DNA of 64,000 nt from Escherichia coli (GTDB lineage: Bacteria; Pseudomonadota; Gammaproteobacteria; Enterobacterales; Enterobacteriaceae): assembly GCF_050920415.1 (NCBI RefSeq), contig NZ_CP169309.1. The stretch is one strand, 5' to 3'. Shown here one piece after another: positions 20,301 through 26,042 of the stretch (its first letter is position 1; every line of letters starts with the position of its first letter). The position numbers were made by a program, and so were the translations under genes. The notes under the pieces are model-generated. The model made no database searches. It was given only the letters and a program-made list of their open reading frames with translations, and was not told the DNA's origin.

Positions 20301-23300
20301 CTGCCAAATACAAAAGCGGAAAGCATTACCTGGAATGAAGATCAAAAAGGCATTTATACCGCAACGTATACCGCTTTACTTCCTGGCACCGGTTTAAAAG
20401 CACAGCTACAGATGTCCGGCTGGGCGAGCGCCCTGACTTCAAATGTTTACAGTATTAGTGGCGATGCCGCCAGCGCACAAATCGTCGCGATGCAAGTGAC
20501 AACGGGTAGCCTGGATGTGCTGGCCAATGGTAGCGATCAACATACGGTGAATGTTCGGGTGGAAGATCAGTTTGGCAATGTGCTGCCAGAGCAGACCGTC
20601 ACCTTTACGGTGACGAAGGGGGCGGCTGTATTTGCCAATGCAGGGCAGAGTGCAGACATCAGGACGGATGTGCATGGCATGGCGGAGGTTGTGCTGAGTA
20701 GTACCGTAGCGGATGCCAGCACTGTTGAGGCTAAGATCAATCAAAGCAGTGATAGTAAAACGGTGAACTTCGTTGCTGATGTCAGCACGGCGCGTATTGC
20801 TGATCTGGGGGTAACGCAGGATAACGCGGTGGCAGACGGCGCGACAGAGAACATGCTGTGGGTGAAAGTCACCGACGCGTTTGGTAATGCGCTGGGCGGG
20901 CAGACGGTCAGCGTGTTGGCGGACAACGGCGCAACGGTCGCTCCGACGGTGATTACAGAGCCGGACGGCACAGTGGAGATCCCTGTCACCAGCCAGACGG
21001 CGGGCACCAGTGCCGTCACTGCAACCATCAACAGCAGCAGCCAGAGCCGGGATGTGACGTTTATCGCCGATGTCAGGACGGCGCAGATCGCGAGTCTGGA
21101 GGTGACGCAGGATAACGCCGTGGCTGACGGCGCAATGGCGAACACGCTGCGGGTGAGGGTGACGGATGCGTTCGGTAATGTGCTTGCCGGGCAGACGGTC
21201 AGCGTGACGGCAGACAACAGCGCAACGGTCACTCCGACTGTCATCACAGGGCAGGACGGGACGGTGGAGATCCCTGTCACCAGCCAGACCGCCGGAATCA
21301 GTGCGGTCACTGCCAGCATTAACAGCAGCAGCCAGAGCCGGAACGTCACGTTTGTCGCCGATGTCAGGACGGCGCAGATCGCGAGTCTGGAGGTGACGCA
21401 GGATAACGCCGTGGCTGACGGCGCAATGGCGAACACGCTGCGGGTGAGGGTGACGGATGCGTTCGGTAATGTGCTGGCCGGGCAGACGGTCAGCGTGACG
21501 GCAGGCAATGGCGCAACGGTCGCTCCGACGGTCACCACGCAACCGGACGGCACGGTGGAGATCAGTGTCACCAGCCAGACGGCCGGAACCAGTGTGATCA
21601 CCGCCAGCGTCAACAACAGCAGCCAGAGCCGGAACGTGACGTTTATTGCGGATGTCAGCACGGCGCAGATCGCGGATCTGGTCGTTAGCCAGGATAACGC
21701 GGTGGCAGACGGCGCGACGGCGAATACGCTGCGGGTGAAGGTCACCGATGCGTTCGGGAATGCACTTGCCGGGCAGACGGTCAGCGTGTTGGCAGGCAAC
21801 GGCGCCACGACTGCTCCGACGGTCACCACGCAGCCGGATGGCACGGTGGAGATCTCTGTCACCAGCCAGACCGCCGGAATCAGTGCGGTCACTGCCAGCA
21901 TTAACAGCAGCAGCCAGAGCCGGACCGTGACGTTTATCGCCGATGTCAGGACGGCGCAGATCGCGGATCTGGAGGTGACGCAGGATAACGCCGTGGCTGA
22001 CGGCGCAATGGCGAACACGCTGCGGGTGAGGGTGACGGATGCGTTCGGTAATGTGCTTGCCGGGCAGACGGTCAGCGTGTTGGCAGGCAACGGCGCCACG
22101 ACTGCTCCGACGGTCACCACGCAGCCGGATGGCACGGTGGAGATCTCTGTCACCAGCCAGACCGCCGGAATCAGTGCGGTCACTGCCAGCATTAACAGCA
22201 GCAGCCAGAGCCGGACCGTGACGTTTATCGCCGATGTCAGGACGGCGCAGATCGCGGATCTGGAGGTGACGCAGGATAACGCCGTGGCTGACGGCGCAAT
22301 GGCGAACACGCTGCGGGTGAGGGTGACGGATGCGTTCGGTAATGTGCTTGCCGGGCAGACGGTCAGCGTGACGGCAGACAACAGCGCAACGGTCACTCCG
22401 ACGGTCACCACACAGCCGGACGGCACGGCGGAGATCAGTGTCACCAGCCAGACCGCCGGAACCAGTGTGATCACCGCCAGCGTCAACAACAGCAGCCAGA
22501 GCCGGAACGTGACGTTTATTGCGGATGTCAGCACGGCGCAGATCGCGAGTCTGGAGGTGACGCAGGATAACGCCGTGGCTGACGGCGCAATGGCGAACAC
22601 GCTGCGGGTGAGGGTGACGGATGCGTTCGGTAATGTGCTTGCCGGGCAGACGGTCAGCGTGACGGCAGACAACAGCGCAACGGTCACTCCGACGGTCACC
22701 ACACAGCCGGACGGCACGGCGGAGATCTTTGTCACCAGCCAGACCGCCGGAATCAGTGCGGTCACTGCCAGCATTAACAGCAGCAGCCAGAGCCGGAATG
22801 TCACGTTTATCGCCGATGTCAGGACGGCGCAGATCGCGGATCTGGAGGTGACGCAGGATAACGCCGTGGCTGACGGCGCAATGGCGAATATGCTGCGGGC
22901 GAGGGTCACCGATGCGTTCGGTAATGCGCTTGCCGGGCAGACGGTCAGCGTGTTGGCGGACAACGGCGCAACGACTGCCCCGACGGTAATCACAGAGCCG
23001 GACGGCACGGTGGAGATCAGTGTCACCAGCCAGACGGCGGGAGCCAGTACTGTCACTGCCAGCATCAACAGCAGCAGCCTGAGCCGGAACGTGACGTTTG
23101 TCGCGGATGTCAGGACGGCGAAGATCGCGGATCTGGTGGTCATTAAGGACGGCTCAGTGGCAGATGGCGCGATGGCGAACACGCTGCGGGTGAAAGTCAC
23201 CGACGCGTTCGGCAATGCGCTGGCCGGACAGACGGTCAGCGTCTCAGCGGGCAACGGTGCAGCGGTTGCCGCGACGGTTATCACCGGGCCGGACGGCGCG

Positions 23301-26042: not shown

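Follow-up and report, generated by a model that had tools for sequence, protein, structure and literature searches.

A stretch of 64,000 nt of Escherichia coli DNA (NCBI RefSeq assembly GCF_050920415.1, contig NZ_CP169309.1; hereafter the window) contains iatC, a gene also called air or eaeX. It encodes an inverse autotransporter adhesin whose exported part includes a long tandem array of immunoglobulin (Ig)-like domains. In the window the gene is divided over two open reading frames (ORFs), and its parts are the following.

17325-27001, plus strand: iatC (= air/eaeX), inverse autotransporter adhesin gene, split into ORF 17325-26042 and ORF 25976-27001.
17769-18590, plus strand: IAT_beta outer-membrane beta-barrel translocation domain (PF11924, E = 4.9e-108, residues 149-422).
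18933-20774, plus strand: six diverged, non-repeated Ig-like domains (Invasin_D3/Big_1; Pfam, residues 537-1150) before the array.
20775-24848, plus strand: array of 14 in-frame 291-nt units, one 97-aa Big_1 domain per unit.
24849-26437, plus strand: diverged Ig-like domains after the array (weak Pfam Invasin_D3 on the intact orthologue; contains a frameshift).
26438-26998, plus strand: Invasin_D4 and C-terminal tip (PF21764, E = 7.9e-13 on the orthologue of the complete genome MFDS1022581; out of frame in the window).

The gene is E. coli iatC, at the same locus as air/eaeX, and its product is a type Ve inverse autotransporter. The NCBIfam model NF040978 Ve_IatC_Nterm (an equivalog-domain model of 1065 residues with a cut-off of 2400 bits) scored the window ORF at 3063 bits and its intact orthologue in MFDS1022581 at 3108 bits. 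The window protein fell below the NCBIfam models of the intimin, YrIlm, Ilp and SinH families. In MFDS1022581, whose region is almost identical, iatC is annotated at 9678 nt, and its counterpart in the window has 9677 nt. The Prokaryotic Genome Annotation Pipeline (PGAP) labels the site 'inverse autotransporter adhesin IatC' and labels other alleles there 'EaeX/Air'; the choice of name tracks copy number poorly, with 16-unit and 20-unit alleles under both. Published polymerase chain reaction primers for air, the 'enteroaggregative immunoglobulin repeat protein', fall at 18671-18690 and 19251-19270, and the predicted product has the published length of 600 bp.

The domain order also agreed with this assignment, the N-terminal IAT_beta barrel being followed on its C-terminal side by a Big_1/Invasin_D3 passenger, as in inverse autotransporters. 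Each array unit matched Pfam Big_1 with E about 1e-22, and two units aligned with the invasin D1-D3 crystal structure 1CWV with E = 1.2e-20. The initial annotation, made from the sequence alone, had called the gene an adhesin with Ig-like modules, and the Big_1, IAT_beta and IatC matches all support it. IatC was named by Goh 2019 (PMC6714894), where the allele of strain SMS-3-5 (2934 aa) was surface-exposed and promoted biofilm when overexpressed, and where a periplasmic LysM domain and a C-type lectin-like tip at the C-terminus were reported from InterPro. Pfam at E <= 10 listed neither a LysM nor a lectin domain in the proteins searched here, and only Invasin_D4 near the C-terminus.

Tandem Repeats Finder and a seed-extension repeat finder were applied to the repeats of the window. 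The first reported a single array at 20778-24829 with a period of 291, 13.9 copies, 89% matches, zero indels and a score of 4828. The second found 14 copies at a spacing of exactly 291 nt. In codon register the unit has 97 residues, beginning with ADV and ending with TFI, and the whole array sits within the 2905-codon plus-strand ORF 17325-26042. The units and their longest exact repeat are arranged as follows.

20775-21065, plus strand: unit 1, an outlier, 76-86% identical to every other unit.
21066-23102, plus strand: subfamily A, units 2-8, with the motif EVTQDNAVADGAMANTLRVRV and 86-96% mutual identity.
23103-24848, plus strand: subfamily B, units 9-14, with the motif VVIKDGSVADG..ANTLRVKV and 87-96% mutual identity.
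21765-22079 = 22056-22370, plus strand: longest exact in-register repeat, 315 nt, units 4/5 against units 5/6.

Fourteen near-identical tandem repeats of 291 bp had been described in the initial annotation. The fourteen exactly spaced copies were recovered, but 'near-identical' proved too strong, since DNA identity over the 91 unit pairs averaged 83.6% (range 75.3-96.2%), with four pairs at 95% or above and none at 99% or above. The two subfamilies that it proposed were confirmed. Its mark of about 80% identity in self-alignment was reached inside the subfamilies and not between them, where units of A and B were 75-82% identical. Unit 4 is the most intermediate member of subfamily A. Long stretches of identical DNA were present as claimed: besides the 315-nt tract, exact in-register runs of at least 100 nt occurred in 13 of the 91 pairs and of at least 25 nt in 37. 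At the protein level neighbouring units were 72-95% identical, and at least 80% identical in 11 of the 13 adjacent pairs.

The variable sites of the array form a mosaic, in which units 3 and 6 have the last third in common and units 2, 6 and 7 the middle third. The window array is also more homogenised than common alleles (adjacent-unit identity 89.8% versus about 85%). Block duplications, suggested earlier as the origin of the subfamilies, are present in other alleles. In the window, however, the subfamilies look like the product of local homogenisation more than of clean block duplication. Two 60-aa ORFs at 21748-21930 and 22039-22221 had been cited as a sign of repeat identity. They exist and are identical at 180 of 183 nt, but they are not antisense: both lie on the plus strand, out of frame with the gene.

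To measure copy number in other strains, gene-specific and island-specific flanks were joined as one query, and the genomic distance between them was taken as the array length. Because the neighbouring gene nepI is carried by 5,404 genomes, flanks specific to iatC and to the island were used. The joined query found the locus in 754 of 5,426 complete E. coli genomes, and the 5' 3.4 kb of iatC alone matched 752. Sixty genomes were then sampled at even steps down the flank-query ranking. The sample contained arrays of 2 units (2 genomes), 6 (1), 11 (2), 14 (2), 15 (3), 16 (10), 17 (6), 18 (2), 19 (10), 20 (9), 24 (1) and 27 (2). Among the rest, two genomes exceeded 21 units, the count was ambiguous in seven, and one entry proved to be a cross-hit to iatD. 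A 12-unit allele was known from an earlier flank query.

A hidden Markov model (HMM) built from the window units was used to count copies in 20 fetched loci. It gave 2, 6, 11, 12, 14, 14, 15, 16, 17, 17, 18, 19, 19, 20, 20, 20, 24, 27 and 27 units, and 14 for the window. Apart from the fragmented gene of MLI106K3, every counted array kept one frame and divided evenly into 291-nt units, and annotated iatC lengths of 7347-13458 nt were consistent with the unit counts. Of 275 units compared, 187 were distinct in sequence, and 87 of 291 columns were invariant. The expansion and contraction of the passenger foreseen in the initial annotation was thus found as a range of 2-27 units in exact 291-nt multiples. 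Identical copy number across unrelated isolates, which it had named as evidence to the contrary, was not what we observed. Since the unit is 3 x 97 nt and the arrays stay in one frame, length changes alter the size of the protein and not its expression. A phase-variable contingency locus, switched on and off by frame or promoter, does not fit this pattern, as 20 of 20 arrays were whole multiples of 291 nt (3 x 97).

Two alleles with the same flanks and different lengths showed how the array can change. RIVM_C019217 (19 units) and NMBU_W05E18 (27 units) showed 0 mismatches in the 3300 nt before the array and in the 2100 nt after it, and their shared units were 100% identical. The NMBU_W05E18 array is the RIVM_C019217 array after a precise deletion of 582 nt (2 units), with its breakpoint within a 141-nt identity tract. 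It also needs a precise tandem duplication of 2,910 nt (10 units), with its junction within a 131-nt identity tract. Judged from the aligned alleles, we read both junctions as signatures of misaligned homologous exchange. Because no point change accompanied the two events, length can change faster than substitutions accumulate. Perfectly identical duplicated units were also seen in VCSW7 and ECE313, as well as in NMBU_W05E18.

Arrays also turned over without net change in length, and faster than their flanks. Between the window and N96 the flanks are 99.1% identical and the unit number is 14 in each, but units at the same register were only 77-98% identical. Units resembling subfamily B occupy different positions in the two arrays.

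Our results make it very probable that the array is a variable-length stalk of IatC/Air, whose units are gained and lost by misaligned homologous exchange, giving alleles of 2-27 units. On this account the N-terminal beta-barrel in the outer membrane would export the passenger, a chain of Ig-like domains that ends in Invasin_D4 and a lectin-like tip. The exact in-register tracts in the units, tens to hundreds of nt long, would permit misaligned homologous exchange, either as unequal sister-strand recombination or as template switching during replication. Whole units would be added or removed with the frame kept, and short conversion tracts would shuffle variants among the units. Alleles of 2-27 units would then place the tip at differing distances from the cell surface, which is the principle of the Periscope Proteins. 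By analogy with the invasin crystal structure, the stalk is expected to be rod-like, with about 3.6-4 nm per Ig domain. For the enzymology (RecA or not) and the selective value of length we infer rather than observe.

Several results weigh against ongoing change, and most of them would suit a static structural stalk, in which ancient divergence and the exchange of whole alleles among strains would explain all copy differences and the gene itself is not rearranging. Copy number was constant among apparent clones: nine sampled 16-copy genomes had identical scores, MS6198 equalled PD23, and WP4-W18-09 equalled 98228. On clonal timescales, then, the array does not change fast. With synonymous divergence (dS) of about 0.4 and a ratio of nonsynonymous to synonymous divergence (dN/dS) of about 0.28, the units are old paralogues that evolve under purifying selection. 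Most unit pairs are 75-90% identical, so much of the array is a poor recombination substrate. Evidence of allelic exchange came from 98224 and RIVM_C019217, whose 19-unit arrays and 3' flanks are identical but whose genes have 23 mismatches in their first 3.3 kb, on the 5' side. The pattern points to allelic recombination with a breakpoint somewhere from the barrel region to the array, and part of the differences between alleles may come from inter-strain recombination rather than from events inside the gene. In addition, the comparison of RIVM_C019217 with NMBU_W05E18 relies on two public assemblies as deposited, and Goh 2019 (PMC6714894) reported no evidence of variability in IatC repeat number, from four complete genes only.

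Even so, we regard a purely static stalk as very unlikely. RIVM_C019217 and NMBU_W05E18 combine identical flanks (5.4 kb) and identical shared units with two precise, in-register length changes, and an imported foreign allele would carry point differences. The perfectly identical duplicated units of VCSW7, NMBU_W05E18 and ECE313 also speak against it.

A variable stalk built by misaligned exchange leaves room for a different enzymology, in which slippage or template switching between nearby repeats acts without RecA, in place of the RecA-dependent recombination put forward in the initial annotation. In E. coli tandem repeats of about 291 nt, both RecA-dependent exchange and RecA-independent slippage operate. 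Lovett and colleagues reportedly found that deletion between close direct repeats of a few hundred bp is efficient in E. coli without RecA, and junction tracts of 131-141 nt at a spacing of 291 nt lie in the regime for such a route. On the other side, the 10-unit (2.9 kb) duplication spans a distance over which RecA-dependent unequal exchange would usually dominate, and the identity tracts are far above the RecA pairing minimum of about 25 nt. The sequences fit both routes, and the RecA-independent one is a real possibility, though less likely than not.

The diversity of the units raised the question of antigenic variation, in which diversifying selection on exposed residues and unit shuffling would serve mainly to evade antibody and length would be secondary. 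The 187 distinct units among 275 and the 87 invariant columns of 291 would suit such a role, as would the mosaic units and arrays that diverge much faster than their flanks. However, the units have dN/dS of 0.27-0.29, far under 1 and close to the 0.27 of the Ig-like domains outside the repeat on the 3' side. Diversifying selection on the units was rejected, the overall ratio giving no signal of it. Antigenic variation as the main role is thus unlikely.

Two features set the window allele itself apart from the MFDS1022581 allele.

25994, plus strand: 1-nt deletion, GGCAA[T]GGGCAAT; the frame stops at residue 2905 of 3225.
22839-22871, plus strand: unit-8 patch, five substitutions relative to the otherwise identical MFDS1022581 array.

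Over 18 kb, the window and MFDS1022581 differed by 8 mismatches and 1 gap. The gap is the deletion at 25994; the missing T is present in both closest relatives, MFDS1022581 and N96. It costs the last 320 residues, so that Invasin_D4 and the tip fall out of frame and the window iatC lacks an intact reading frame for the full adhesin. It is either a strain-specific inactivating mutation or a sequencing error. A separate 1-nt deletion, in a run of G near codon 72, affects the iatC gene of N96, and the copies in ETEC6334 and MLI106K3 are degraded or fragmented. Five of the eight mismatches fall within 33 nt of unit 8. There, the window equals units 5 and 6 exactly over 77 nt, and the MFDS1022581 version is unique among the units examined. 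The patch is most simply read as a putative short tract of gene conversion with unit 5 or 6 as the donor; an artefact of polishing within the repeat would leave the same pattern.

Arrays of this kind are exposed to assembly error, as the initial annotation had warned for short reads, and one example came from outside the complete genomes. Two contigs of a metagenome-assembled genome (MAG) filed in GTDB as 'Collinsella sp.', JAIJJM010000039.1 and JAIJJM010000277.1, were 93-94% identical to the flanks of iatC in the window. They are mis-binned E. coli DNA, the first covering nepI-iatC and the second iatC-eilA-eip. Each contig breaks off within the array, the one after about 215 nt of unit 1 and the other, at its start, two units before the array end. 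Could the array, or its copy number in the window, likewise be an artefact of assembly? Such repeats do break short-read assemblies, the gene is fragmented even in the complete genome MLI106K3, and errors of polishing could have produced both the unit-8 patch and the 1-nt deletion. But the independent complete genome MFDS1022581 has the same 14 units with 5 nt different, and 19 other loci have arrays of exact 291-nt multiples in one frame. We consider an artefact extremely improbable.

The array stands out from the rest of the gene in base composition. Third-position GC content (GC3) was 0.49-0.59 in the six upstream Ig-like domains and 0.74-0.81 in 14 of 14 units. It fell to 0.47-0.54 directly after the array and to 0.33 over the final 1 kb of the gene. 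The jump coincides exactly with the array edges (20775-24848 versus 19029-20774 and 24849-26998), and the overall GC contents of the three parts, 0.51, 0.63 and 0.40, make the gene a compositional mosaic. Other alleles share this pattern, with array GC3 of 0.74-0.79. Synonymous codon choice shifts in the array, so amino-acid content alone cannot account for the rise.

A foreign founding unit or GC-biased conversion among the units are possible sources of the rise in GC3. No donor lineage for GC-rich units was found by scanning one genome per species of 100,044 species with a degenerate 41-nt motif; the matches were one unrelated Gemmatimonadetes and the two mis-binned E. coli iatC contigs. Edge units had lower GC3 than internal ones only in the window lineage, and unit GC3 correlated weakly with identity within arrays (rho 0.15, on non-independent data). 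It is doubtful that the rise is the footprint of GC-biased gene conversion among the units. A related reading is as doubtful, namely that the array, changing length faster than point mutations arise, would act as a slow contingency switch for surface reach. If conversion is GC-biased here, repeat arrays inside bacterial adhesin genes would be natural places to measure the bias.

One further reading frame overlaps the array.

20741-24811, minus strand: antisense ORF of 1356 aa, open across the whole array.

It was rejected as a gene. Its third codon positions fall on those of the sense frame, which are GC-rich, and the repeat has propagated a stop-free frame.

Along the locus, nepI is followed by iatC, eilA and orphan type III translocon genes, and tRNA-Sec lies another 11.5 kb away. 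The gene iatC sits beside eilA, between nepI and the eip genes, and all fetched loci had the same order nepI-iatC-eilA as the window.

27053-28750, minus strand: eilA, a regulator of the HilA family and a conserved neighbour of iatC/air (from the annotation of the identical MFDS1022581 region).
27053-34035: eilA, then genes for an IpaD/SipD-like tip protein, a SipB/YopB-like translocator and a SycD-like chaperone, with GC of 0.34-0.36.
38518-38612: tRNA-Sec, near the translocon cluster; no apparatus genes are present in the cluster after eilA.
15044-15710, minus strand: genes for a toxin of the RelE/ParE family and a helix-turn-helix antitoxin, between yicN and nepI.

The gene for the RelE/ParE-family toxin is annotated as frameshifted in PD23 and 2014C-3075.

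The closest known counterpart is the IatC of SMS-3-5 (EcSMS35_4024), whose locus is that of Air/EaeX in enteroaggregative E. coli 042 and has the same nepI-iatC-eilA position as in the window. Like it, the window gene passes the IatC N-terminal model, matches the air primers and has the beta-barrel, the Big_1/Invasin_D3 passenger, Invasin_D4 and the tip. Unlike the SMS-3-5 protein (2934 aa, equal to 11 units as in strain e1-39), it has 14 units and would have 3225 aa if intact. Its flanks within the gene match those of common iatC alleles at only about 93% identity; it also has more homogenised units and carries the frameshift.

The array fits the class of Periscope Proteins (SasG, Rib, Sgo_0707, CdrA), single-chain surface proteins in which the number of highly similar, tandem stalk domains varies between strains and changes by exchange within the gene (Whelan 2021, PNAS, PMC8201768). 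The class explicitly includes inverse autotransporters (PMC9704523), and its operational criteria are repeats of more than 50 aa, about 80% identity or more, and length variation (PMC8201768, methods). IatC has 97-aa units with 11 of 13 adjacent pairs at or above 80% protein identity, and 2-27 units in complete E. coli genomes. From the homology of Big_1 to the invasin rod and the published surface localisation of IatC, the units may be expected to fold singly into an elongated rod that projects the tip. One E. coli cluster in the PMC8201768 dataset, unnamed there, combines IAT_beta, Big_1 and Invasin_D3 with a 97-aa repeat in 3-12 copies and identities of 0.84/0.86. These values fit the array, including the mean unit identity of roughly 85% in common alleles. 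The entry, A0A376HGL9, may be IatC; the link consists of the species, the domain set, the 97-aa unit and the identity values. In contrast to the listed members, IatC is Gram-negative, with an N-terminal beta-barrel anchor and a C-terminal tip. Its unit identity (mean 84-85%) lies at the low end of the class, and its range of 2-27 is wider than the listed 3-12.

Other relatives share the plan of the protein and differ in the repeats. The Yersinia ruckeri proteins YrIlm and YrInv are likewise inverse autotransporters with long runs of Ig-like domains; their repeats are reported to be almost identical and are known to be mis-assembled from short reads (cited in PMC6714894), whereas the IatC units are 75-96% identical. 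The YrIlm N-terminal model gave 411 bits for the IatC N-terminus, under the family cut-off of 750, and IatC is thus not a member. Invasin (Y. pseudotuberculosis, 1CWV) and intimin resemble IatC in belonging to the beta-barrel family and in having a Big_1 passenger, a rod-like form and a C-terminal binding tip. Unlike IatC, they lack tandem near-repeats, since their 4-5 Ig-like or lectin domains are diverged, and the intimin model gave 429 bits for the window protein against a cut-off of 1400.

A length-variable stalk is thus already known as a feature of a known gene within a previously catalogued class. What is added here is the wider range (2-27), junction-level evidence on the mechanism, and a correction: the copy-number data amend the finding of the 2019 paper that there was no evidence for variation in IatC repeat number. 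Otherwise, the array is a typical example of its class and opens no new question. The gene air/iatC is scored as virulence-associated in surveys of enteroaggregative and extraintestinal E. coli, usually as presence or absence from short reads. Strains differ by up to 25 Ig-like domains in IatC, which by analogy with invasin would correspond to stalks from about 7 to about 100 nm long. Broken copies are frequent too, with frameshifts in the window and N96 and degradation in ETEC6334. Because the number of domains varies and the gene is often broken, presence calls say little about what the cell displays at its surface.

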